This document shows positions 8,157 through 61,715 of a stretch of DNA of 64,000 bases, one piece after another (position 1 is the first letter of the stretch; every line of letters begins with the position of its first letter). Location of the stretch: contig QWRJ01000002.1 of the NCBI GenBank assembly GCA_003670475.1, positions 34,240 through 98,239 on the forward strand. Direction: 5' to 3'. The notes beneath the pieces were generated by a model that was given only the letters and a program-made list of their open reading frames with translations, made no database searches and was not told the DNA's origin. The position numbers and the translations under genes are program-made. This DNA is from Candidatus Limnocylindrus sp. ZSMar2m-chloro-G89. GTDB taxonomy: Bacteria; Chloroflexota; Limnocylindria; Limnocylindrales; Limnocylindraceae.

Positions 8157-9686
8157 GTGACACGCTCGATCAACGAGATCGGAGCTGGACTCGCCCCATC
8201 GCGTCCGGGGGCACCGCTCCTCCTCCCGCTCGCCCTCCATATCGTCGGCATCGGCGGCACTGCGGCGACGGGCGCCGCGCTCCACGCAGCGGCACTCGGT
8301 GTATCGGTCACCGGGTGCGACGGCCACCTGAGCCGCGAAACTGCCCTCCTGCTTGAGGCGGCGGGGGTGCAGGTGAGCGATGAGAGAGACCTCACTCCAG
8401 TGGGTCGCGCCACTCTTGTCGCCGTCTCAAAGGCGATCACGAGTACGCAGCCAGATCATCCGCAGCTCCACGCGGCACGGGCTGCTGGCGTCCCGATCGT
8501 CTCCCTGCAGCAGGTGATCGCGGACGCTGCCGCGAGCCGCGGCGCGCCACTCCTCGGCGTTGCGGGGACGCATGGGAAGACGACCTCCACCGGTTGGCTC
8601 CTCGCCGCGCTCCGCGCGTCAGGGCGCGACCTCTCCGCGTTCGTGGGCGGGCCGCTCCCAGCGGGGCAGGGGAGTCCAGCAGGCTCGCCAATCCACCTTG
8701 GAGCCGAGTCGGGCTTCATCGTGGAGGCGGACGAATACGGCGGGAACTTTGACCCCTACGCCGCAGACGCGGCCCTGATCCTCAACGTTGATTGGGATCA
8801 CCCCGACATCTTCGCCGACCGCGCCGCCGTCGTCGCCACGTTTGTCGCTTGGGGTGCGCCAGTCCTTGGACGCGGTGCGCTCGTGGTGAACGTTGCCGAT
8901 GCTGGCGGCGCAGAGGCGGCTGCCGCGCTTGAGCAGCACGACCAGGGGAGCCTCATTCGCTACGCCGTCCGTGCGCACGGACGCGCAGAGACAGTTGCGG
9001 ATGTGACTGCCGATCTTGAACTCGCCTCAACTGGAACGGTGCAGCTCAACAACCTGACGCTGAGCGAGCGGGGGGCTCGACTCGCCCCTGCGCTCGTTGA
9101 GCTGCAGGGGAAGGCGCTGAAGATTGGCCTCCTAGGCGCGCACAACGCGGCGAATGCGCTCGGTGTGGCAACTCTCGCCGCGACATCAGGAGGAACGGGG
9201 GCGGGGATTGCCGCAGCACTCGCCGGCTACCCAGGGGTGGGGCGGCGGATGGAGGTCCGCTATGACCAGAACGGTATCACCGTGCTCGACGACTACGGCC
9301 ACCACCCCACGGCGATTGATGCCACCATCTCCACGGTGCGCCTCCGCTACCCAGGGCGACCACTCATCCTCGCCATTGAACCGCTGACTTACCACCGCAC
9401 CGCGGCACTCCTCCCTGCGCTCGCGCGCTCATGCGCCGCCGCAGACCGGGTCGCGGTTGCCGACATCTTCGCCGTTCGCGATATGGACCTCACAATCACG
9501 AGCGCTGCGAAGCTCGCCGCCGCGATCAGCGCACTAGGGACGCAGGCGGAGGCCCCAGGCTCTGTTGAGGTCACCGCGGACGCCATCTACGCCGCACTTC
9601 CGGAGGGGGCGGTTGTCCTTGTGATGGGCGGAGGGCGCTCTACGGACCTGGCAACTCGACTCGCTGCGGCACTCGCCGCGCGCTAG
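8157..9686 (+). CDS. murC: Mur ligase, MurC-like (UDP-N-acetylmuramate--L-alanine ligase or Mpl)
   Basis: HIVGIGGTAATGAA N-terminus, GTHGKTTSTGWL P-loop, AHNAANALGV; GTG at 8157 with GAGGCGG SD preferred over ORF-track start 8130, which overlaps yajQ. Confidence 0.65.
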   Translation: MTRSINEIGAGLAPSRPGAPLLLPLALHIVGIGGTAATGAALHAAALGVSVTGCDGHLSRETALLLEAAGVQVSDERDLTPVGRATLVAVSKAITSTQPDHPQLHAARAAGVPIVSLQQVIADAAASRGAPLLGVAGTHGKTTSTGWLLAALRASGRDLSAFVGGPLPAGQGSPAGSPIHLGAESGFIVEADEYGGNFDPYAADAALILNVDWDHPDIFADRAAVVATFVAWGAPVLGRGALVVNVADAGGAEAAAALEQHDQGSLIRYAVRAHGRAETVADVTADLELASTGTVQLNNLTLSERGARLAPALVELQGKALKIGLLGAHNAANALGVATLAATSGGTGAGIAAALAGYPGVGRRMEVRYDQNGITVLDDYGHHPTAIDATISTVRLRYPGRPLILAIEPLTYHRTAALLPALARSCAAADRVAVADIFAVRDMDLTITSAAKLAAAISALGTQAEAPGSVEVTADAIYAALPEGAVVLVMGGGRSTDLATRLAAALAAR

Positions 9687-11293
9687 CTCCCTTCAGGTCC
9701 GCCCGAATACTGATCTGGCCGTGGCGGCTCGCTCCCTGCAACGCGCGCGGCGTGCTCTTGCGCAACTGGGCTAACTGGACGGGCGAAGAGTGGGTGCCCC
9801 TCTGAGGTGAGACATCGGCCACTCGCAAGATCCCACTGCCAGCCGTGGATGCTGCAGGTGAGAGTCTCACCATCCTCCGTGCCGAAGCGTGTCAGATCCG
9901 CCTTCATATGCGGGCAGCGCCGCTGCACCTGCCAGCCGTTCAGGTCAAAGGTTCCCTCGGTGGGGCCATTCTCGGCGTAGAAGCCTTCTGCGTACTGGAT
10001 CCGCGCCACGGAGAGGCACTTGAACCAGGTGTAGAGGTAGTCGTTGTAAGAGCCACGCCGCCAGGCGCTGAAGCGCAGCGAGAGGAAGAGCGAGTTGACC
10101 CAGTCATCGGTCCGCGTCCGGACCAGATGATCGAGGAGGAGGCGGGGGATGGTGAAGCGGAAATCAACGTCGCGCCCGTCGTCAGCGACGACTGCGCGCT
10201 CAGAGAAGTCGAGCAACAGGCTGGTGTCGTCAGTCTGAATACGGACCGGCCCGCCGATCCCATCGCAGACGCGCGGGCCGAGCGCCATCAGCGGCTCAAA
10301 CCACGCCTTCATGTCAGCCAGAAGATCCGTGCGAGGTCCCGCCCACGACGCCTTCTCTGCGGCGATACGTGGCGCCACGTCCTTTGCGTACGTGCGCAAG
10401 TACGCCTCCTTATCAGCAAAGACGCTCTGCACAGACAGTTCGCCCTCTAGATGCTGCACGTCAAACCTTTCGCCATCATTAAATGTACCGATGCTCCCAG
10501 GGAGCATCAGGACCGCCTGCTGGCCTGCCTGTTGTAGGTAGTCAACCATCAGGCGCTGATCCGGAAAGATTGAGTCCTCAGCATTGTTGACGTCGTTCCA
10601 CTGGAAGAGCTCATCGTCAAGGAAGCAGGGGGGTCCCGCGGAGGGAATCACGACGCGGGGACTGATGATCTCCACGTAGCGAGCGGCACGGGCGAACTGT
10701 GCGGCGCGCTTCTTCTTTGCGAGCGCCTCCTTGGCGCGTTCAGGGAGTTCGTAGACCATCGGGTACCAGATGGCGCCGCTGAACTGCAGCAGACAGATAT
10801 CAATCGCTCCTTGCACCAAGAGGCGGTCAGGATCGATCGGCCGGCTGTCATTCAGGTTGAGCAGGCGCTCCACACCGTCGTCCACTAGCAGGGCAGAGTC
10901 GCCGATCGGCCCATCTGTTGGCGCTGTGAGCGCCTCAACGACCAGCGTCAGTCCGCCGTGCTGCACAGGGACGCCAGAGACTGTCTCAATGAACCTGCTG
11001 AAGCCGAGCTCAGTGAGCGCCTCGCGCAGCTCAGGGAGCGGGTAGGCGGGGAGGATGACCGTCGCCTCCTTGCTGCACCAGCGGGCAAGCCACTCAGGGT
11101 CGAAATGGTCTCTGTGGAGGTGGCTGATATAGAGGTAGTCCGTGGCGCCTAAGGCGGCGTGATCAAGACCATCGTTTCGTGGGTACGGGAACCAGCCTGC
11201 GTAGTAGGCCGGGTTGAACCAGGGGTCACAGAGGATGGAGCCGTGGGCGGTATGGATCTTCACGCCAGCCTGAGCGATGAATTCGATCCGCAT
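9683..11293 (-). CDS. MBL-fold metallo-hydrolase fused to C-terminal Rieske [2Fe-2S] domain
   Basis: HLHRDH metal-binding motif in the N-terminal MBL fold; C-terminal CPH...(17 aa)...CSIHGW Rieske CxH/CxxH motif. Confidence 0.7.
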   Translation of the reverse strand: MRIEFIAQAGVKIHTAHGSILCDPWFNPAYYAGWFPYPRNDGLDHAALGATDYLYISHLHRDHFDPEWLARWCSKEATVILPAYPLPELREALTELGFSRFIETVSGVPVQHGGLTLVVEALTAPTDGPIGDSALLVDDGVERLLNLNDSRPIDPDRLLVQGAIDICLLQFSGAIWYPMVYELPERAKEALAKKKRAAQFARAARYVEIISPRVVIPSAGPPCFLDDELFQWNDVNNAEDSIFPDQRLMVDYLQQAGQQAVLMLPGSIGTFNDGERFDVQHLEGELSVQSVFADKEAYLRTYAKDVAPRIAAEKASWAGPRTDLLADMKAWFEPLMALGPRVCDGIGGPVRIQTDDTSLLLDFSERAVVADDGRDVDFRFTIPRLLLDHLVRTRTDDWVNSLFLSLRFSAWRRGSYNDYLYTWFKCLSVARIQYAEGFYAENGPTEGTFDLNGWQVQRRCPHMKADLTRFGTEDGETLTCSIHGWQWDLASGRCLTSEGHPLFARPVSPVAQEHAARVAGSEPPRPDQYSGGPEGS

Positions 11294-42843: not shown

Positions 42844-44274
42844 CTAGCCGTTTGGCGCGGTGATGCGACGTGATGCGCGCGGAAGTGGATGCAGCTCAAT
42901 CGCTTCGCCAGCGGCGTATTCGCCGACCTCTTCTGGCACGACCCCCAAATAGTCGGTCCGCGCCAGCACTGAGACCTGATGGCTCCCCTGCTCCCCTGCC
43001 AGTCGTACCCGCACGCGACCTGAAGGATCGTGCAGCGGTGCACCATCTTCATCGCGGAGTGCAGCGAGGCGAAGGAAGGAGCGCCTCCCAAGCGGACTCT
43101 CGACGCGCTCCTCAAGCAGTCCCACAGCTCGTAGCCCGCGTGCCGGTCGTCCAGCAAGCGCCCGAAGGAGTGGGAGCGCAACCTCAACGCCTACGACAAA
43201 CGCACTCACCGGATTCCCAGGGAGGCCGATTGCCCAGAGTGCACCGTCGCCACCAGCGCGCCGTCGACCGAGGAGCAGTGGCTTCCCCGGCTGAATTGCA
43301 AGGCGCCAGACGACCAACTCAAAATGCGTTGCGAGCGCTGCACCAACATGATCGTGCGCCCCCACGCTGACTCCTCCTGTTGTCACCAGGAGGTCAGCCT
43401 GCGCGGCGAGCGCCGCAACGACCGCGCCGGTTGCCTCCGCCGTATCGCCAACATGTGCACGCGCAACAACCTCGCCCCCTTCGGCGGCAATCAGCGCAGC
43501 GAGAGCGGGGCCATTACTGTCGCGAATTCCTCCATCAGCCGCGTTGTTGAGCAGTTCGTCGCCTGTCGTTAGAAGCGCAACCCTTGGTCGCCGCACCAGG
43601 GAGAGATCCGCTGCGCCACTCGAAAAGATGACGGCGAGCAGCCCAGCATCAATAGCTGCACCAGCTTCAGCGAGAAGACTCCCCACGCGCTGATCCTCAC
43701 CGCGTCGGCGAATGTGCGCACCGACTTTGACGCCACCGCTCACCCATACATGCGCTGGAAGCTGCGCTGGGACGCGCTGCAGTAGTACTCCGCCGCGATC
43801 TGGATCCGCGATGCTGCTCCGCTCCACAGGGATCACCGTCGTGCCGCCTTGTGGAATCGGTGCTCCAGTTGCGATGCGCTGACACTCCCCATCGCGCAGC
43901 GGCGTGGCACTGAGTGCGTGACCTGCAGCCGCATCTCCAACACAGGTCAATCGGCGCGGTGCGCCGCTGGACGCTTCAGCTGCATCAGCCAACGTCGTAA
44001 CCCAGCCATCCATTGCCGAAACATCAAATGGGGGGTGATCAACAGCCGCGCAGAGCGGCTCGGCGAGCGTCCGCCCGATCAGCGAGGCGGCCGTCTCATC
44101 GCTGACTGCGATTCGCTCCGCAGGGAGCGGCGTGACCTGCGCCAAGAGGCGGACAAGAAGATCGTCAATCCGCTCAAGCTCCGCTGGAACCGGCTCGCTC
44201 ACTGCAGGCTCTGGAGCAGAAGGATTGAGGCGATCGCTCCGAGCGGTGCGTTGAGCCAGAGGAATCGGCGCCAT
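42844..44274 (-). CDS. moeA: Molybdopterin molybdenumtransferase MoeA (true start probably about 30 codons inside the ORF)
   Basis: MoeA domains incl. MogA-like central domain TTGGVSVGAHD; ORF-track start would overlap the upstream gene by 76 nt. Confidence 0.85.
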   Translation of the reverse strand: MAPIPLAQRTARSDRLNPSAPEPAVSEPVPAELERIDDLLVRLLAQVTPLPAERIAVSDETAASLIGRTLAEPLCAAVDHPPFDVSAMDGWVTTLADAAEASSGAPRRLTCVGDAAAGHALSATPLRDGECQRIATGAPIPQGGTTVIPVERSSIADPDRGGVLLQRVPAQLPAHVWVSGGVKVGAHIRRRGEDQRVGSLLAEAGAAIDAGLLAVIFSSGAADLSLVRRPRVALLTTGDELLNNAADGGIRDSNGPALAALIAAEGGEVVARAHVGDTAEATGAVVAALAAQADLLVTTGGVSVGAHDHVGAALATHFELVVWRLAIQPGKPLLLGRRRAGGDGALWAIGLPGNPVSAFVVGVEVALPLLRALAGRPARGLRAVGLLEERVESPLGRRSFLRLAALRDEDGAPLHDPSGRVRVRLAGEQGSHQVSVLARTDYLGVVPEEVGEYAAGEAIELHPLPRASRRITAPNG

Positions 44275-45743
44275 GCAGCACGGGCCGCCCCCCAGTTTGG
44301 CCTCCCACGAAGAAGTGGGAGCACCGAGCAGCCGCTTGCGATCGGAATAGCCGCAGCGAGCTGCATCAGCACGGACGGCTGAGCCAAGAGTGGCAGCGCG
44401 GCGAGCAGATAGGCCAGCAGAATCACCCGCGAGGTGCGGCGCTCCCCAAGCAGTGTTGCGACTGTGGCAATCCCGCTTCGCTTGTCAGCCGACACATCTT
44501 GCAGCGCACCAAGCGCATGGCTCGCAACGCCCCAGAGCGCAAGCGCCAGAAGCGGCGCAATCCACGCCGAATCCAGCGTGACGCCGAGGAGGAGCCCTGC
44601 GATCGGCGGGATCAGGAAGTGTATTGAGGAGACAACGGAGTCAAGGAGCGGGACCGCACGCGCCCGTACGAACCAAGGAGCGCTGTAGAGCGTTGCAAAG
44701 AGGATCGCAATGAGCGGCATAAGGTTCGCCGGCGCAGGGAGGGCGATCGCCATAATCAGCGCTGGCACCAGACCTGCAGCCACGAGTGCAACGCGAAGTG
44801 GAGCGAGGTCGCGCCCGCGAAGGAGCGCACCCTCCGCACCACCCTTGCGCGGATTTGCCGCGTCACTGGCACGGTCATAAAGATCATTGATGCCGTAGAG
44901 GTAGAGGTTGTACCCAGCTCCCCACCAGAGGATCGGAGCAAGCAGCCATCCGCCGAGCGCCTCCCCAGCACCGGCCGCAAGCACGCCTCCAACGAATGGG
45001 AGCGCGGTGTTCACCCAGGAGATTGGCCGCGCAGCGAGGAAGATCCTCCATGCGCTCCCCTCCCCTAGCAGCACCTCTGCACGCAAGCGCAACGCCACAC
45101 CTGCGAGCCCGACGGCATAAAGAAGATCCTCGACCGGCGCTGTGCCAAGCAAGACGCCACTACGTGGCTCCCCTGGATACGTCAGCACTCCTAGGTAGCA
45201 GAGCACGTTATCGAAGATCAGTGTCAACACGATGAAGACGAACGCAGCGACGCGCGTACCATGATCGCGCCGCAGTAGTTGCGCAGCAAGCGCCACCCCC
45301 GCTCCAGCAAGCACTCCAGCTGCAACGCTGTATTCAGCACCACTCAGGATCGCCAGCAGCAACCCGCCACTCAGTGCGCCAATGCAGGCATCAAACACGC
45401 CACGGCGAAGTCCCAGTGTGACGCGACTCGCAACCCTCCCCTTCCCGAAGGCATCCGCAACAACCACAAGGAGTGATGTGATGCCGAAGAGGAGGAGTGG
45501 CTCTTCAATTGGGAACCCGCGACCGAGAGGGCCAGCGCCAGGGAGGGAGAGTGCCGTTGCGCTAGAAGGAGTCGCAAACCATCCCCGCGCGAGCCCAACC
45601 GTATCTACGAGCAGAAAGCCAATTGTCGTTGCGATCACAACTGGAAGAAGCACGTCGCGTCGCATCTGCCGACTCCAGCGCAGCGCAAGGCCACGGATGC
45701 CAACGATCGAGCCGATGATCGAAAGCAGATAGAGCGCGCTCAT
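44199..45743 (-). CDS. Fusion protein: two lycopene-cyclase-domain (CrtYcd-like) repeats + UbiA-family prenyltransferase; candidate carotenoid elongase/cyclase
   Basis: PxE(E/D) cyclase-domain motifs (GFPIEEPLLLFG; APVEDLLYAVG) in two N-terminal 3-TM repeats; UbiA Asp-rich motifs NDLYDRASD and DVSADKRSGIAT in the C-terminal half. Confidence 0.65.
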   Translation of the reverse strand: MSALYLLSIIGSIVGIRGLALRWSRQMRRDVLLPVVIATTIGFLLVDTVGLARGWFATPSSATALSLPGAGPLGRGFPIEEPLLLFGITSLLVVVADAFGKGRVASRVTLGLRRGVFDACIGALSGGLLLAILSGAEYSVAAGVLAGAGVALAAQLLRRDHGTRVAAFVFIVLTLIFDNVLCYLGVLTYPGEPRSGVLLGTAPVEDLLYAVGLAGVALRLRAEVLLGEGSAWRIFLAARPISWVNTALPFVGGVLAAGAGEALGGWLLAPILWWGAGYNLYLYGINDLYDRASDAANPRKGGAEGALLRGRDLAPLRVALVAAGLVPALIMAIALPAPANLMPLIAILFATLYSAPWFVRARAVPLLDSVVSSIHFLIPPIAGLLLGVTLDSAWIAPLLALALWGVASHALGALQDVSADKRSGIATVATLLGERRTSRVILLAYLLAALPLLAQPSVLMQLAAAIPIASGCSVLPLLRGRPNWGAARAAWRRFLWLNAPLGAIASILLLQSLQ

Positions 45744-46490
45744 CTATCGCCTCCGTCGTCGTGCGGCACGAAAGCCGGCCGCCGCGGTAACGACTAGCAC
45801 GGCACAGAATCCGATCGCTGCCGCCACCCAGAAGGTTTCGGGGTAGAGCCGCACCAGGCGATCCGTTGCAGGATTAAATGTCCAGGTCCCTGCTGGGAAG
45901 AGCAGCTGATGTGCTGCGGTGAACGTTGCATCAAAGGCGAAGAGGAAGGCGCCTCCAACGAGCGCAGCTCCCGCACCAAGCAGCACCGCTCCATCGCGAA
46001 CCCCTCGCAGCACCCATCGTCTTCGTCGAATGGCGAGCACTGAGAGAAGAGCAAGCGCACCTGCGCCGAAAAGAACGAGTCCGCGAAAGAGCAGACCGAC
46101 ATCCACAAGGTGCGAGCGTTCAGCAGCGCTCAAGAAGATCTCGTCGCCCAGTTGTGCGTCAAAGGCTCCACCGAAGAGGAGATCGCGTACCAGCGCATCA
46201 GAGAGCGCATACGCAGTCGGTGCTTCAACGCCGAGAAGGGCGGGGGCGCTCGCAAGGTCGAGCAGCGCATGGACGACGGGTGGAAGAAGGAAGAGGAGTA
46301 GCGTGAGGGCGAGCAGCGCAACCAGTACCGCAACGGCCAGCAGCGCTCGCCGCGCTACGCGGCGCAACGCTTTCACGCGTCGACGAGGACGCGACCCTGC
46401 TCCCACCATGACCTGACTGAGAGGGGATCTGGCGCAACTCGTCCAAGCAGCACTGCCGCTCGCGTTACCGCAGCCTGAAAGTCTCCCCAC
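45744..46490 (-). CDS. 4-TM integral membrane protein of unknown function (possibly DUF1461/TIGR01906-like)
   Basis: Four predicted hydrophobic helices; stop abuts the start of the downstream fusion gene. Confidence 0.45.
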   Translation of the reverse strand: MGRLSGCGNASGSAAWTSCARSPLSQVMVGAGSRPRRRVKALRRVARRALLAVAVLVALLALTLLLFLLPPVVHALLDLASAPALLGVEAPTAYALSDALVRDLLFGGAFDAQLGDEIFLSAAERSHLVDVGLLFRGLVLFGAGALALLSVLAIRRRRWVLRGVRDGAVLLGAGAALVGGAFLFAFDATFTAAHQLLFPAGTWTFNPATDRLVRLYPETFWVAAAIGFCAVLVVTAAAGFRAARRRRR

Positions 46491-46762
46491 TCGCTCTCCG
46501 CGAGTACCTGGATCCCGGGGTAACCCGCCGCTGCGAGCAACTGATGTTCCGATGGGCCGAAGAAGGCAAGATTCAGGAGCAGCGCTTCATCACGCCACTC
46601 GCCAACATCGGCAAGGGAGGCGTCGGTCTGGTCGGCGAGGGTCTGGCGACGCGTTGGCGTCTCGCTCCGTTCAAGGAGGAGGCCCGTCGTGAAGATCCCC
46701 TGCGCCTCAAGGCGCGCGAGGTGGACCGGCTCAATGCGGGTGAGCTGAACGATCGCTGGCAT
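46373..46762 (-). CDS. Small soluble protein, tentatively DUF4332 (tandem HhH-like repeats)
   Basis: MPAIVQLTRIEPVHLARLEAQGIFTTGLLLE and LNLAFFGPSEHQLLAAAGYPGIQVLAE repeat pattern; start placed at internal Met. Confidence 0.4.
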   Translation of the reverse strand: MPAIVQLTRIEPVHLARLEAQGIFTTGLLLERSETPTRRQTLADQTDASLADVGEWRDEALLLNLAFFGPSEHQLLAAAGYPGIQVLAESEWGDFQAAVTRAAVLLGRVAPDPLSVRSWWEQGRVLVDA

Positions 46763-46863
46763 CAGTACCTCCTCGCGGCATCGTAGCGCCTCCCCCCTCA
46801 CAGGCGTGCCGAGGTGGGCAAATTGTTACAATCACCAGCCTGCGCAACGCCTCGGGGGCAACG

Positions 46864-46891
46864 CGAAACTTTCGGTCGTTTGCGCCATAAT
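46864..46891 (+). promoter_or_regulatory. Putative rhodopsin promoter: 11-bp palindrome CGAAACTTTCG at the -35 position + CATAAT -10
   Basis: Palindrome at about 46864-46874, CATAAT at about 46886-46891, about 45 nt upstream of the rhodopsin ATG. Confidence 0.3.
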
Positions 46892-46936
46892 CAGCCCAGC
46901 GGTGCGTTGTGCCGTAAACAAGGTTAGGGAGGGTCA

Positions 46937-47680
46937 ATGAGTCCAGAGATGGGATATCAGTTGGTCTATAACTTTATGTCCCTCGCCATCGCGGCGATGG
47001 GTGCGAGCTTCTTCTTCTTCGTCTCCGCAAGGGGATCGCTGAAGGAAGGGAACCGCATGGCAGTCACGCTGTCAGCCACTGTTGTGCTGATCGCGTTCTA
47101 TCACTACGTCCGCATCTTCGACTCGTGGGTCGCCACGGCGGGTGTCGGAAATCCAGGCGCGTTCAACGAGGGCTACCGCTACGTTGACTGGCTCCTCACG
47201 GTGCCACTCCTCGTCGCAGAGTTGATCCTCGTCCTTCGCTTGGACAAGAAGGTTGAGAGCAAGCTGATCCAGCGAAATGTGCTCTACGCCTTCCTCATGA
47301 TCGCAACCGGATACATCGGCGAGCTGGATGTCCAGACCTCCGTGGTTCTTGACTCCTCACGCACGATCTGGGGCGCTATCAGCACGATCTTCTTCGTCCT
47401 GATCCTGCGCGACCTCTTCGGTGGCATCGAGGCCTCCTTCAAGAGGCAGAGCAAGGAGATCCAGGGGATCTTCAAGGTACTTCGCGTTGTGCTTATCGCC
47501 ACGTGGGGTGTCTACCCAATCGCCTATCTCCTTCCAACGATTTCGACCAGCCTCGGCCTGACGGCTGGGGACGGCCTCGTGCTAAAGCAGATTGGTTACA
47601 CGATCGCGGACATCCTGGCGAAGCCAGGCTACGGTCTCCTCATTTGGAAGATCGCAACCCTGAAGAACTCAGGCCGCTAA
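46937..47680 (+). CDS. Type-1 microbial rhodopsin, DTE motif (predicted light-driven outward proton pump), xanthorhodopsin-like antenna-site Gly
   Basis: Helix C RYVDWLLTVPLLVAE (D84/T88/E95); helix G DILAK (D225, Schiff-base K229); retinal pocket WGVYP; W145-G146 where bR has W137-W138; 7 TM helices; GGGAGGG SD. Confidence 0.85.
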   Translation: MSPEMGYQLVYNFMSLAIAAMGASFFFFVSARGSLKEGNRMAVTLSATVVLIAFYHYVRIFDSWVATAGVGNPGAFNEGYRYVDWLLTVPLLVAELILVLRLDKKVESKLIQRNVLYAFLMIATGYIGELDVQTSVVLDSSRTIWGAISTIFFVLILRDLFGGIEASFKRQSKEIQGIFKVLRVVLIATWGVYPIAYLLPTISTSLGLTAGDGLVLKQIGYTIADILAKPGYGLLIWKIATLKNSGR

Positions 47681-47715
47681 ATCGATCAAACACGCGACTC
47701 GTGTCGCGTAGAGAA

Positions 47716-47745
47716 GGCCCGGGGGAGACCCCGGGCCTTTTCATT
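47716..47745 (+). terminator. Strong Rho-independent terminator after the rhodopsin gene
   Basis: GGCCCGGGG-GAGA-CCCCGGGCC followed by TTTTCATTT. Confidence 0.7.
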
Positions 47746-47792
47746 TCCTGCCGATGCTGGGGCTTGAGCACGCCACGCGCTACGCTGCGGCT

Positions 47793-48071
47793 ATGTCGCA
47801 GCAGAAGAATCCGACGCAGGCCCGCTTCCGAGTGCGCTGGCGCTACTTCGTCACACTAGCCTCCCTCTGCGCGGTGGCTGCCGTGTTTCCGATCCTTCTC
47901 GTTGCCGCGCACTTCACACTCAACGGCTTCAAAGGGAACGCGTTTGATGAGAACGGCTACGGCGTATTCCTATGGCTCCTCATCATCACCGTGCCGTTTA
48001 GCATCGCTGCCTTCGTGCTCGGCACCATCGTCGGTGCGCTCGTTGAGATCGTGCGCTACATACGCCGATAA
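47793..48071 (+). CDS. Small 2-TM hypothetical membrane protein
   Basis: ORF with two hydrophobic helices; no recognisable family. Confidence 0.35.
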
Positions 48072-48127
48072 CTGCACGTATTGGGTTGAATCTGTTGCTT
48101 CGCATTCGAGCGGAGCAGTGGTCGGAG

Positions 48128-48204
48128 CGACAGGATTTGAACCTGCGACCTCTTGCCCCCCAGGCAAGCGCGCTACCAAGCTGCGCTACGCTCCGTTCGA
48201 TTTG
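48128..48204 (-). tRNA. tRNA-Pro (anticodon GGG), CCA encoded
   Basis: Minus strand CGGAGCGTAGCGCAGCTTGGTAGCGCGCTTGCCTGGGGGGCAAGAGGTCGCAGGTTCAAATCCTGTCGCTCCGACCA. Confidence 0.8.
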
Positions 48205-49231: not shown

Positions 49232-50664
49232 CGAGAGCCGCCTCCGGTGCGCCCGCCACCCTTGCCACGCTCACGACCCTCTTCGGCGGAGCGCTCGCGC
49301 ACCACGATCCGGATCGGCGTGCCGTTGAGCGGGTAGCGCTCACGAATCTGATTCTCAAGGAAGCGCTGCCAGCTGAAGTGCACCTGCGCTGCGTTGCGGG
49401 CGAAGAGGACAAAGGTGGGGGGCGGCGTGGCCGCCTGCGCCGCGTAGAGGATCTTCGGTCGCTTACTCCCGCTATGCACCGGCCCCTGCCGAGCGACCGC
49501 CTCGGCGACTAGGCGATTCAGCGCGCCTGTTGGGATGCGCAGCTGCCGCGCGTCAGCCGCCGCGATCGCCGCATCAAGCACCTTCGTGGCGCGAAGTCCG
49601 GTCAGTGCAGAGATGGAGACGATCGTCGCAAAGTCAAGGAAGGGCGCCTGGCGGCGAATCAGGCCCATCGCCGTGTCAAAGGTGAAACCGTCTTTATCAA
49701 CCAGGTCCCACTTATTCATCACGATGACGAGCCCCTTCCCAGCGTCAATCACCGAACCCGCTACATGAAGGTCCTGCGCCTGGAGTCCTGTCGATGCGTC
49801 AATGATCAGCAGCGCAACATCGGCGCGATCAAGGGCCGCGACGGAACGGACGGTGGCGTACTTCTCTGCAACAGGTCCTGAAGCGATCTTGCCGCGACGC
49901 TTGATCCCCGCCGTGTCAACGAGCGTGATGTGACGGCCGGCGTGTTCAATCTGGTCATCGATCGCGTCGCGCGTTGTTCCTGGCACATCGCTCACCACCG
50001 TTCGCTCCTCGCCGAGGAGTTGGTTTAGGAGGCTCGACTTACCAACGTTTGGGCGACCAACAATCGCCACCGTTACTTCGCCCTCGCGTGTCTGCACGCC
50101 ACTATCCACAGGGAGGCCGCGCAGGCTCTCAATAAGCACGTCAAGCAGGTCGCCCGAGCCGATCCCATGCTGCGCGCTGACTGGATAAATCGCATCAAAG
50201 CCGAGTGAGGCAAACTCGTGCGAAGCGCGCTCGCGATCAATGTTGTCCGCCTTATTCGCGGCGAGGAGGATCGGCTTCCCGCTCTTGCGCAGCAGTAGCG
50301 CCACCTCGGCGTCGCCTGGGTTTGGGCCGGTTGCGGCATCCACCACCAGGATGATGAGATCGGCGTTCGTTACGGCGATCCGCGCCTGATCCTGTACCGC
50401 GACGTCAATCACGTCCCCCTGTGACGGTTGCATCCCGCCAGTGTCAACGAGACGGAAGCGGAAGCCGTTCCAGTCGGCGATTGCGATCAGTCGATCGCGT
50501 GTTGTCCCTGCGCGATCCTCAACCACGGCGCGGCGCTCGCCAACGAAACGATTGAAGAGCGTACTCTTCCCAACGTTCGGGCGGCCAACCAGTGCAACGA
50601 GCGGCAGTCGCTCCTGCGTGATCTCCTCCACCGCGATCCCTGCGCGCTCAGAGCGCCGGGTCAC
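49228..50664 (-). CDS. der: Ribosome-biogenesis GTPase Der/EngA (tandem GTPase domains + KH-like)
   Basis: Two G domains (GRPNVGKS x2). Confidence 0.9.
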   Translation of the reverse strand: MTRRSERAGIAVEEITQERLPLVALVGRPNVGKSTLFNRFVGERRAVVEDRAGTTRDRLIAIADWNGFRFRLVDTGGMQPSQGDVIDVAVQDQARIAVTNADLIILVVDAATGPNPGDAEVALLLRKSGKPILLAANKADNIDRERASHEFASLGFDAIYPVSAQHGIGSGDLLDVLIESLRGLPVDSGVQTREGEVTVAIVGRPNVGKSSLLNQLLGEERTVVSDVPGTTRDAIDDQIEHAGRHITLVDTAGIKRRGKIASGPVAEKYATVRSVAALDRADVALLIIDASTGLQAQDLHVAGSVIDAGKGLVIVMNKWDLVDKDGFTFDTAMGLIRRQAPFLDFATIVSISALTGLRATKVLDAAIAAADARQLRIPTGALNRLVAEAVARQGPVHSGSKRPKILYAAQAATPPPTFVLFARNAAQVHFSWQRFLENQIRERYPLNGTPIRIVVRERSAEEGRERGKGGGRTGGGSR

Positions 50665-51617
50665 TGGGTGTCCGAAGTGCTAAGTGATGTGGTGCGGTAC
50701 TGCGGCGTTGCCGCGGCGGCGAGCGCCTCATGCGCAATCTCTGCTGCCTTGACCTTCATGCCCTCCGTGCCAGCAAGCTGAACGATGGTTCGAACGACCA
50801 CCTCAAGGTCTTCAATCGGGGTGCTCGTGCCACCGGTTACCCCCACACGCTTCACGCCAGAAAACTGTGCCGCATCGGTGAGATCCTTGGCAGATTCGAT
50901 CTGTAGTGCGCGCGTCCCATTGATCTCGCAGAGTCGCGTCAACTCTTTTGTGTTGGCGCTCTTGCTCCCGCCAACAACGACCATCAGGTCAACCTCTCGC
51001 GCCGCCTCCAGCGTGTCCTCTTGACGACGGATGGTGACGGGGCAGACGGTGTTTACCACCTTGAGTTCATGACAGCGTGAGACCATGAAGGCGGCGAGGC
51101 GCTCAAACTTCCATGGCGGTTGCGTTGACTGCGTGATCAGCGCCATCCGCTTTCGGCGTGGGATCTTGACCCAGTCCTCCTCTTCGTCAACCAGGATTGC
51201 GTTCGGCGCGAATCCAAGGAGCCCCACAACCTCCGGGTGGTTCGGCGTTCCAAGGAGCACAATGTCGTACCCCTCGTCCACGAGCTTCGCCAACTCACGA
51301 TGCTCCTGCACCACCCAGGTGCAGGTCCCGTCAATCACCTCAAGGCCACGACTCACTGCACGCTCCAGCACTTCAGGGGTGACGCCATGTGCGCGGATCA
51401 CCACCGCCGCACCCTCCTTCACCTGATCAAGGCTCTCAACGTTTTCAATGCCGCGCTGATGCAGGTCGGCGATCAGCCCCTCGTTGTGCACCACATGGCC
51501 GAGCGTGTGGGTCGCCTTCCCCTCCGCACTCGCAAGTTTCGCCTTATCAATCGCCTCACGGACGCCATAACAGACGCCGGTACGGCGGGCGATACTGATG
51601 CTCTCAACGCTTCCCAT
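50661..51617 (-). CDS. ispH: 4-hydroxy-3-methylbut-2-enyl diphosphate reductase
   Basis: CYGVREAI..., conserved Cys ligands (GTCTWV; NTVCPV). Confidence 0.9.
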   Translation of the reverse strand: MGSVESISIARRTGVCYGVREAIDKAKLASAEGKATHTLGHVVHNEGLIADLHQRGIENVESLDQVKEGAAVVIRAHGVTPEVLERAVSRGLEVIDGTCTWVVQEHRELAKLVDEGYDIVLLGTPNHPEVVGLLGFAPNAILVDEEEDWVKIPRRKRMALITQSTQPPWKFERLAAFMVSRCHELKVVNTVCPVTIRRQEDTLEAAREVDLMVVVGGSKSANTKELTRLCEINGTRALQIESAKDLTDAAQFSGVKRVGVTGGTSTPIEDLEVVVRTIVQLAGTEGMKVKAAEIAHEALAAAATPQYRTTSLSTSDTQ

Positions 51618-51716
51618 GCGCCGATTATCCCCTAGTCGGCTCCTCGGAGTCCCAGCCACGCGTCAGGCGGCGCGCAGGAGGCTCTCTGGGCCCCCAGCAG
51701 GGGCGAAACCTGCGGC

Positions 51717-59717: not shown

Positions 59718-61715
59718 CTATCGAGCGCGGCGTGCCCCCCATGCGGCGCGGATCTGGCGTTCAATCCCCGCCTCGTCCAGACCGATCAGCGTACGCAGCG
59801 CTGAGACGCTTCCGTGGTCCACGAAGGCGCCAGCTGGAATGCCGATGCTGAGCAGCGTGGCGCTGATCGGCTCACCTGTTGCCGCCTGATCCGCGGCGAG
59901 CGACTCAGCGACCGCTCCACCAAATCCACCCGCAGTGACGCTCTCCTCCAGCGTGACGATCATCTTGCTGCTGCGACCGAGACGTCGATAGAGCGCATCA
60001 TCAATCGGGCTCGCCCAGATGGCATTGACAACACCAACGGAGAGCCCGGATCCGCGCAGCTGCTCAGCCACGCGAAGCCCACGCTGCACGATCGGGCCGA
60101 AGCCAACAATCACGATGTCGCTCCCCTCGGCGAGCGTCTCCGCCTTTCCGACTGGAATTGGACGCGGTTCACGCGGAGCGACGCCCTCAATGCTGTCGCG
60201 CGGATAGTGCAGCGCAAATGGATGGTCTTGCGCAAGTGCCGTACGGACAAGGGCGCGAATCTCCTGCTCATCCTTCGGTGAGGCAATGACGAGACGCGGG
60301 ATCTGACGCTGTGCGGTGAGCGTGAACATCCCCTGATGGCTGGTGCCATCTTCGCCAACGAGGCCGGCGCGGTCCACCCCAAAGAGCACTGGCTGGTCGT
60401 TCTGGCAGGCGTCATGGACGATCTGGTCCCATGCGCGCTGCAAGAAGGTTGAGTAGATCGCAACCACCGGACGACCGCCGCCCATCGCAATCCCCGTTGC
60501 GGTTGCAACGGCGTGCTGTTCTGCAATCCCAACGTCATAGAAGCGATCGGGATATGCGGCCGCAAACTTGTCAAGGCCAGTCCCTGTAGGCATACCGGCG
60601 GTGATCGCCACGATGCGGCGATCGTCCGCAGCCGCGGCGATCACTTCAGCAGCGAAGAGCGCTGTGTAGTTCGGTCGTTTTGGCGCAGGTGCCTCTGGAA
60701 CACTGCCACTCTTCCCGTATGAATCCGTTGGAACGCCGACCTCCATCTTCGGGAGCGCTGCGCCGTGGAAGGTGATCGGATCCGCCTCAGCGGGACGGTA
60801 GCCGCGACCCTTCTGCGTCCGCACATGCACGATCACCGGACCTGGCATGGCGAAGGCGGCGTTGAAGGCCTCCTCCATCTGCATCCGGTCATGGCCATCA
60901 AGAACACCGACATAGGTGATGCCGAGATCCTCAAAGAGACGTCCAGGCTCCTGCACGAATGAGACAACGGAGCGTCTCAGGCTCTTTGAGAGGCTCAACA
61001 GCTTGTTGCCAATCAGCGGAAGGGATCCGACAAACTTGTCATACCCGCTCTTACTCCCACGCCATGTCTTTGAGAGCTTCACCTTGGAGAGATACGTGGA
61101 GATCGCGCCAACGGTTGGGGAGATGGACATCTCGTTGTCGTTCAGCACAATCAGCATCTTGGTCTGGCGATGCCCGATGTCATTGAGCGCTTCCAGGCTG
61201 AGCCCACTCATCAGCGCCGCGTCGCCCACAACCACCGCAATCTTTTCACTCCCGCCGCGCACATCGCGTGCCAAGGCAAGGCCCTGACCAATAGAGATGC
61301 CCGTCCCCGCATGGCCACCATCAAAGACGTCATGCGGCGATTCTGTTCGTCGCGGGAAGCCACCAATTCCGCCGAGTTGACGCAAGCTACCGAATCGCGC
61401 GAGGCGACCGGTGAGGAGCTTGTGCGGATACGCCTGATGCCCAGTGTCAAAGACGATGCGATCCACCGGTGAGGCCATCACGTGATGAAGTGCGATCGTC
61501 AACTCCACCACGCCGAGGCTTGGGCCGAGGTGGCCGCCAGTCACTGCGGTGGTTGCGATGATCGCAGTGCGAAGCTGCTCACCGATCTGGTTGAGCTCGG
61601 CGCCGGAGAGTCCCTTCAGGTCCTCAGGGCCCTCAAGGCGCGCGAGGAGCGAGTCGGCGCCGACCGCGCGCAGCGCAACCCCTTCGTCCACCCCTGGCTT
61701 CGTCACCGCACTCAT
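59718..61715 (-). CDS. dxs: 1-deoxy-D-xylulose-5-phosphate synthase
   Basis: TPP-binding GDG...N motif, transketolase-like domains. Confidence 0.95.
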   Translation of the reverse strand: MSAVTKPGVDEGVALRAVGADSLLARLEGPEDLKGLSGAELNQIGEQLRTAIIATTAVTGGHLGPSLGVVELTIALHHVMASPVDRIVFDTGHQAYPHKLLTGRLARFGSLRQLGGIGGFPRRTESPHDVFDGGHAGTGISIGQGLALARDVRGGSEKIAVVVGDAALMSGLSLEALNDIGHRQTKMLIVLNDNEMSISPTVGAISTYLSKVKLSKTWRGSKSGYDKFVGSLPLIGNKLLSLSKSLRRSVVSFVQEPGRLFEDLGITYVGVLDGHDRMQMEEAFNAAFAMPGPVIVHVRTQKGRGYRPAEADPITFHGAALPKMEVGVPTDSYGKSGSVPEAPAPKRPNYTALFAAEVIAAAADDRRIVAITAGMPTGTGLDKFAAAYPDRFYDVGIAEQHAVATATGIAMGGGRPVVAIYSTFLQRAWDQIVHDACQNDQPVLFGVDRAGLVGEDGTSHQGMFTLTAQRQIPRLVIASPKDEQEIRALVRTALAQDHPFALHYPRDSIEGVAPREPRPIPVGKAETLAEGSDIVIVGFGPIVQRGLRVAEQLRGSGLSVGVVNAIWASPIDDALYRRLGRSSKMIVTLEESVTAGGFGGAVAESLAADQAATGEPISATLLSIGIPAGAFVDHGSVSALRTLIGLDEAGIERQIRAAWGARRAR

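Follow-up and report, generated by a model that had tools for sequence, protein, structure and literature searches.

The window analysed here, a stretch of 64,000 nucleotides of contig QWRJ01000002.1 (assembly GCA_003670475.1, positions 34,240 to 98,239 of the forward strand) from Candidatus Limnocylindrus sp. ZSMar2m-chloro-G89, contains an opsin gene, and the question that this locus raises is what such a protein could do for a freshwater member of the Chloroflexota (SL56 cluster): whether it pumps protons in the light, and whether a carotenoid might serve it as antenna.

46937 to 47680, plus strand: xanthorhodopsin-type opsin gene, ATG start, 247 amino acids (identified from the open reading frame, Pfam, alignment to structures in the PDB and identity to a GenBank entry)

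According to our analysis, this gene would encode an outward proton pump, driven by light, of the xanthorhodopsin (XR) family, possibly with a carotenoid antenna, a reading to which we give a probability of roughly 0.85.

A sequence-only reading of the same DNA had described a 247-residue open reading frame (ORF) carrying the hallmark residues of type-1 rhodopsins; the ORF is present, and every position named was confirmed by script. The residues on which the assignment turns are H56, R81, the DTE motif formed by D84, T88 and E95, L92, the pair W145-G146, the helix F motif W190-G-V-Y193-P194, D225 and K229; the sequence of helix C is RYVDWLLTVPLLVAE, and DILAK occurs in helix G. Against Pfam PF01036, the profile proposed as a check, the protein scores 138.3 bits (E = 3.6e-40; cutoff, 24.6 bits), with residues 14 to 241 covering profile positions 7 to 222 of 224, and the NCBIfam search returned no matching model. 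H56, R81, D84, T88, E95, G146, W190, Y193, P194, D225 and K229 do not vary among the 120 closest homologues in the database, and G146 is also kept in three divergent related loci (L022, L023, and L025). The AlphaFold2 model, built on 26 close homologues, displays seven long helices with a mean pLDDT (predicted score in the local distance difference test) of 56.5 and a predicted template modeling score of 0.45, low values which we attribute to the shallow input alignment. The seven-helix fold follows indirectly from the full-length alignment of the protein to six crystal or cryo-electron microscopy structures.

Comparison with all PDB sequences, in which placement was made by alignment scores, assigns the opsin to the XR clade. 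The best matches are XR of Salinibacter ruber (3DDL, 8.6e-54), the Antarctic cyanobacterial psXR (9WFA) and entry 9HFK (both 2.9e-53), followed by Gloeobacter rhodopsin (GR; 6NWD, 1.7e-51), Kin4B8 (7YTB, 7.7e-44) and Thermus rhodopsin (5AZD, 1.1e-43); for 9HFK, an equally good match, we found no paper. These six structures all align over residues 7 to 244 of the opsin with 153 to 186 bits, after which the scores fall sharply to 60 to 97 bits for sodium and chloride pumps, proteorhodopsins and bacteriorhodopsin (BR), with E values of 1e-24 to 1e-21 for the ion pumps and proteorhodopsins. The next-best scores are 97 bits for 8JH0, 88 for sodium pumps, 80 for GPR and 62 for BR. A proteorhodopsin in the strict sense was considered and rejected, as the GPR and BPR structures reach 66 to 80 bits versus 186 for XR.

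In the parsed PDB alignments, opsin residues H56, R81, D84, T88, E95, G146, D225 and K229 correspond to H62, R93, D96, T100, E107, G156, D236 and K240 of XR and to H87, R118, D121, T125, E132, G178, D253 and K257 of GR, while G146 corresponds also to G172 of psXR and G153 of Kin4B8. Since the aligned positions reproduce the published numbering of XR, GR and Kin4B8, we consider the residue mapping validated. An alignment with a BR sequence (BLASTP E = 2e-16) places W145-G146 opposite W137-W138, D84, T88 and E95 opposite D85, T89 and D96, D225 and K229 opposite D212 and K216, and W190, Y193 and P194 opposite W182, Y185 and P186. The DTE motif, D225 and K229 have one-to-one counterparts in XR, GR and Kin4B8 and, together with the WxxYP motif, in BR; D84 and K229 occupy the homologous positions in both sets of alignments, and the proposed equivalence of G146 with G156 of XR and with its counterpart in GR is borne out. 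These comparisons support a DTE-motif type-1 rhodopsin of the XR clade with the fenestration glycine. L92, which lies at the tuning position equivalent to residue 105 of proteorhodopsin, predicts absorption of green light.

Among solved relatives, S. ruber XR is the closest, with 110 of 236 aligned residues identical (47%), and it shares with the opsin the DTE motif, the H62-D96 pair, R93, D236, K240, G156 and the contact residues T160, A198, G201, I205 and Y207. It differs in that the opsin has a B-C loop shorter by about six residues and in that the host of the opsin is a genome-reduced freshwater member of the Chloroflexota and not a halophile, with no evidence for salinixanthin. GR and psXR show 50 to 51% identity and an identical helix F motif, WGVYPIAYLLP; both are fenestrated outward proton pumps, with 4-keto carotenoids as ligands of GR and lutein as a ligand of psXR. 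Unlike them, the opsin is devoid of an N-terminal extension, carries T201 where they have the fenestration-floor methionine (M233 in GR and M227 in psXR) and has V181 in place of N213 and N207, respectively. Kin4B8 (7YTB/8I2Z) is likewise a freshwater XR with the equivalent glycine, but its identity to the opsin is 42%, its A205 stands opposite the bulkier, psXR-like L198, its E-F and F-G loops differ and its host has been assigned to the Bdellovibrionota.

By homology with XR, GR and Kin4B8, the transport cycle, in which pumping and the availability of retinal are inferred, may be pictured as follows. All-trans retinal would be bound to K229 as a protonated Schiff base; after photoisomerization, the Schiff base proton would pass to D84, paired with H56 and aided by R81 and D225, and E95 would reprotonate the Schiff base from the cytoplasmic side. 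The net outward transport of protons would supplement the proton motive force of a photoheterotroph. In the same scheme, G146 would leave a fenestration onto the retinal ring, and a carotenoid ring could dock along helix F.

The antenna site was inspected at 13 salinixanthin contact positions of S. ruber XR, compiled from the literature. Seven are identical in the opsin (L138, for which the alignment is less certain, G146, T150, A188, G191, I195, and Y197), and three are conservatively replaced (V184 for L194 of XR, I187 for L197, and L198). This level of conservation is similar to that in GR, which shares 7 of 12 salinixanthin contact residues and binds both salinixanthin and echinenone, although the conservation of contact residues has failed to predict carotenoid binding in other XRs. 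As G146 replaces the bulky Trp or Phe of helix E, an antenna is sterically possible. The sequence-only reading had the glycine opening the pocket for the 4-keto ring of a carotenoid; the glycine site stands, but the specificity for 4-keto rings does not, since fenestrated XRs and proteorhodopsins have been shown since 2022/23 to bind 3-hydroxy xanthophylls (lutein and zeaxanthin). The opsin has T201 at the position of Kin4B8 S208, a polar fenestration floor proposed to favor 3-hydroxy xanthophylls, and this threonine hints at hydroxylated carotenoid rings. Any carotenoid at this site would be a putative ligand, possibly a xanthophyll of this kind.

A nearby gene on the other strand bears on this question.

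44199 to 45743, minus strand: CrtYe+CrtYf+CrtEb-type fusion gene, 514 amino acids, 1.2 kb from the opsin gene and divergent from it (identified from Pfam and BLASTP colinearity)

Its product matches UbiA (1e-19) and, weakly, Lycopene_cyc (4.9e-4) in Pfam, and it scores 203.7 bits against the prenyltransferase model NF009608, just under the cutoff of 217; PF18916 is matched by 27 of the 31 members of the fusion family. The 31-member alignment reveals two cyclase repeats with invariant PxEE (P78, E80, and E81) and PxED (P203, E205, and D206) motifs, and both Asp-rich motifs of UbiA are invariant (N286/D287/D290/D294 and D416/D420). For the UbiA part, the closest homologue that stands alone is a 297-residue Microbacterium protein, encoded in a cluster idi-crtE-crtB-crtI-(109 residues)-(120 residues, PF18916)-UbiA, which is a classical C50 carotenoid operon. 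By BLASTP, residues 35 to 95 of the fusion correspond to Microbacterium CrtYe (2e-4), residues 161 to 206 to CrtYf (3e-7) and residues 234 to 510 to CrtEb (40% identity, 4e-42). Because of this colinearity with three separate genes, we regard the product as a CrtYe-CrtYf-CrtEb fusion; it is probably a C50 carotenoid cyclase plus lycopene elongase, predicted to convert lycopene into a cyclic C50 carotenoid. Public annotations go no further than "UbiA family prenyltransferase" or, in other entries, "lycopene cyclase domain-containing protein." In other Chloroflexota (proteins P0177 to P0191), the nearest CrtEb-like domains are fused to GT2 glycosyltransferase domains (427 to 730 residues) with no cyclase, and JGI gives one of these relatives the name "lycopene elongase/hydratase (flavuxanthin-forming)."

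A scan of GTDB species genomes found the full-length fusion only in Limnocylindrus, Candidatus Aquidulcis and Chloroflexota metagenome-assembled genomes (MAGs), and nearly all other matches kept were Actinomycetota with separate genes. A rhodopsin gene lies divergently upstream of the fusion in every Limnocylindria locus with enough upstream DNA, while the actinobacterial crtEb loci retrieved all lack a rhodopsin gene within 8 kb. In most lineages, this says little about linkage because the whole region is syntenic. Three loci are more informative: in L022, L023 and L025, the opsin and fusion genes are immediate divergent neighbors, 135 to 214 bp apart. Of the flanks scanned, those of L025 (a PALP enzyme, NhaA, DinB, and a two-component system) and those of L022 (FabF, DUF1761, and MsrAB) are unrelated to the flanks in the window. 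With the two genes staying together in three genomic contexts, a functional tie gains support; from this conserved pairing, the fusion would be functionally linked to the rhodopsin, and the cell's own cyclic C50 carotenoid chemistry may be tied to the pump. Among all the related loci, the opsin is far more conserved (80 to 100% identity) than the fusion (41 to 94%). One locus with a Limnocylindrus-type opsin and fusion (L018, CAMAXG010000001.1) carries the GTDB title "Thermoflexus hugenholtzii JAD2 isolate MH-08apr19-222," an organism label that is probably wrong.

Two known systems resemble this arrangement in part. Freshwater Microbacteriaceae (Aurantimicrobium and Rhodoluna), with their XR-like rhodopsin and actinorhodopsin systems, are genome-reduced photoheterotrophs that combine an XR-like DTE pump with C50 crtYe/crtYf/crtEb genes; they differ from Limnocylindrus, in which one 514-residue polypeptide unites the three proteins and its gene forms a divergent pair with that of the opsin, and the likeness concerns carotenoid genes and the description of the system rather than an opsin-to-opsin comparison. 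In Halobacterium, according to the account of Dummer et al. 2011 cited in PMC6212597, bacterioopsin inhibits the lycopene elongase Lye, and lycopene is diverted to retinal. This provides a precedent in which a UbiA-type lycopene elongase is functionally tied to an opsin, although the organisms belong to another domain of life, their C50 product (bacterioruberin) is acyclic and no cyclase is fused to the enzyme. By analogy, the precedents of Aurantimicrobium minutum and Halobacterium make the pairing of opsin and fusion worth testing. A possible but doubtful extension is that the two genes form a light-harvesting module specific to Limnocylindrus-type freshwater Chloroflexota, in which the C50 product would be the native antenna at G146 or the fusion would act in the supply or partitioning of retinal precursors, with a TGTNACA palindrome between the genes as their common operator. 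If the former were true, this would be the first C50 antenna; alternatively, a precursor role would fit the route without blh that has been proposed for Aurantimicrobium, or else the haloarchaeal control of Lye by opsin.

Several observations, set out here and in the next paragraph, weigh against a retinal-supplied pump with an antenna. The literature search found no experiment on this or any Limnocylindrus rhodopsin, and the AlphaFold2 model, with its pLDDT of 56.5, is too poor for viewing the fenestration, for which reason sequence alignments to solved structures were used. At the antenna site, the remaining 3 of the 13 contact positions differ (F157 to A147, N191 to V181, and M211 to T201), the Octadecabacter XR has the glycine yet does not bind salinixanthin, and psXR gave no binding of canthaxanthin; because of these two failures, the glycine is not enough by itself, and we hold it to be necessary but not sufficient for carotenoid binding. 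These points lend weight to the strongest competing account, in which the protein is an XR-type pump using retinal alone, with a glycine inherited from the XR clade and no carotenoid binding or energy transfer in the organism. The glycine occurs in about 55% of environmental XRs and is accordingly not a specific adaptation, glycine-bearing XRs that failed to bind the carotenoids tested are documented, and both the helix F slot (with L194 to V184 and L197 to I187 in addition to N191 to V181) and the ring pocket (A147 and T201) depart from S. ruber XR. On the other side, G146 and the slot residues T150, A188, G191, I195, Y197 and L198 show little or no variation across the lineage, GR binds carotenoids at a comparable level of conservation, the fenestrated XRs in two binding studies all bound at least one xanthophyll, and a carotenoid pathway gene is the conserved divergent neighbor of the opsin. 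We regard a pump without antenna as plausible, at somewhat less than even odds.

The supply of retinal is the second matter on which the outward pump with a possible antenna may be questioned. Among all the major ORFs of the window, which were scanned, there is no blh/brp, crtB or crtI, and no diox1; some rhodopsin-bearing Chloroflexi are reported to be without blh or diox1 (Nakajima et al.); and the supplementary tables examined, from Mehrshad et al. 2018 and a 2026 paper on Limnocylindria, hold no carotenoid or blh rows for SL56. The statement that retinal synthesis genes are missing from the window thus holds for blh, crtB and crtI, but the carotenoid fusion and the isoprenoid genes ispH and dxs are present. 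An opsin that relies on external retinal or on a blh-independent route, and that works only in part or under certain conditions, as has been reported for Rhodoluna lacicola and A. minutum, would be compatible with the pump reading, and it gains from the strongly reduced genome and from the finding of Nakajima et al. that A. minutum, an actinobacterium with an XR-like pump and crtYe/Yf/crtEb, makes retinal without blh; the sole carotenoid gene linked to the opsin here is of exactly that C50 type. The search covered the window, and blh may lie elsewhere in the genome, as in many genomes of XR subgroup I; moreover, the retention of 80 to 100% identity by the opsin while the fusion falls to 41 to 45% argues for continuous functional use. 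On this balance, we consider such dependence unlikely. A sensory role, inward pumping or the transport of another ion, for which the motif-based assignment of function leaves room, is highly improbable, given that the DTE motif, the His-Asp pair and the carboxylate donor E95 are identical to those of the outward pumps XR, GR, psXR and Kin4B8, that NQ-, NTQ- and NDQ-type pumps score far lower and that the Pfam scan placed no transducer or signaling gene next to the opsin.

The opsin finding is correct but already known, because the protein has been deposited, named a xanthorhodopsin, and its antenna site has been discussed in print. The exact 247-residue sequence corresponds to GenBank RLT31820.1/RLT49515.1, [quoted passage not shown] and is present on 117 contigs. 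Mehrshad et al. 2018 (PMC6169038) reported that SL56 and other freshwater Chloroflexi have green-tuned rhodopsins closest to xanthorhodopsins, that up to 10 of 12 salinixanthin-binding residues are conserved in at least one Chloroflexi rhodopsin, and explicitly suggested a carotenoid antenna. For the Limnocylindraceae, a 2026 study named proton-pumping rhodopsins as the principal gain linked to habitat, and the Limnocylindrus genome is known to be strongly reduced. The rhodopsin alone therefore adds nothing to the published record, whereas the conserved pair of opsin and C50 enzyme fusion, of which the literature search found no description, is a modest new increment. Limnocylindrus (SL56) belongs to the abundant, uncultured, genome-reduced plankton of lakes, and what would matter, if pursued, is whether the freshwater XRs with a fenestration that occur in monoderm Chloroflexota work with an antenna, and with which carotenoid. 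The opsin-fusion pair offers a compact two-gene system for the questions raised by blh-lacking actinobacteria, namely, C50 antennas and the source of retinal.

The expression signals around the opsin gene are consistent with a gene transcribed on its own.

46823 to 46831, no strand assigned: near-palindrome TTGTTACAA with a TGTNACA core, candidate operator between the divergent genes, 113 nucleotides 5' of the opsin start
46886 to 46891, plus strand: candidate -10-like box CATAAT, 51 nucleotides 5' of the start codon, putative promoter element
46927 to 46933, plus strand: Shine-Dalgarno sequence GGGAGGG, 3 nucleotides before the ATG, read from the sequence
47692 to 47751, plus strand: intrinsic terminator, with hairpins at 47692 to 47709 and 47711 to 47742 (14-bp GC-rich stem) followed by a UUUUCAUUU tract

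The strong Shine-Dalgarno sequence that had been claimed is indeed found; its spacing to the ATG is short but usable, and a GGAGG-containing box is kept across an alignment of 17 orthologous upstream regions. In the same set, CATAAT or GATAAT occurs at -49 to -53 in six regions and TACTTA at -53 or -54 in seven others, while a consensus sigma-70 scan yielded no full promoter upstream of the opsin. The TGTNACA motif is present as a single copy in the window, versus 6.7 ± 2.6 expected, and recurs at -101 to -149 in 15 of the 17 orthologous regions, as an inverted pair in 9; outside the window it was found in L001, L003, L008, L010, L011, L013, L015, L016, L018, L020 and L024 to L027. We take this palindrome, which lies between the divergent genes, to be a candidate operator; a regulatory protein may bind at TTGTNACAA.

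The terminator is as strong as had been proposed: the RNA folds with a free energy of -44.7 kcal/mol (z = -5.73), and none of 200 shuffled sequences folds as well, while a simple consensus promoter/terminator scanner did not flag it. The hairpin core at 47714 to 47742 is about 96% identical over 28 to 29 nucleotides in 12 related loci, including loci in which the opsin protein is only about 82% identical, and such conservation is unusually strong for a terminator stem. Between the terminator and the downstream tRNA-Pro gene lies an ORF of 105 residues (47754 to 48071, plus strand) with two hydrophobic stretches. It was considered as a conserved gene and rejected, since Pfam gave no match, NCBIfam only a sub-threshold one and tblastn none in the related loci. 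Probably it is no gene at all, or else it is specific to this strain. As the upstream gene lies on the other strand and this 3' ORF shows neither family match nor conservation, the opsin gene is effectively monocistronic, in agreement with the sequence-only reading.

The fusion gene is part of a head-to-tail set on the minus strand (42844 to 46801) comprising genes for DUF4332, a Lit-like TIGR01906 membrane protein, the carotenoid fusion, MoeA, MoaC and a MoCF-domain protein. The fusion starts immediately after the stop codon of the Lit-like gene (45744/45743), so that the carotenoid enzyme sits inside an apparent operon with molybdenum cofactor genes. Of these, moeA and moaC are absent in L003 and L006 to L009, and the DUF4332 and Lit genes are absent in L022, L023 and L025.

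According to the Pfam scan of all major ORFs, the window is a housekeeping chromosomal region with recA, ruvABC, tRNA synthetase genes, molybdenum cofactor genes, gpsA, der, scpAB and xerC/D-like genes.

9683 to 11293, minus strand: 536-residue protein with an Rv3818-like SCP2 domain (4.5e-43) and a Rieske [2Fe-2S] domain
48119 to 48195, minus strand: tRNA-Pro (GGG), 440 bp 3' of the opsin gene
50661 to 51659, minus strand: ispH (LytB), methylerythritol phosphate pathway, 3 kb from the opsin gene
59718 to 61715, minus strand: dxs, same pathway, 12 kb from the opsin gene

The ispH and dxs genes supply isoprenoid precursors and are not specific to retinal. The Rfam scan of the window detected three tRNAs only. 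The GC fraction at 46800 to 48200 is 0.57 to 0.60 versus 0.63 for the window, and this composition was rejected as evidence of recent horizontal transfer, since similar GC dips occur elsewhere in the window.

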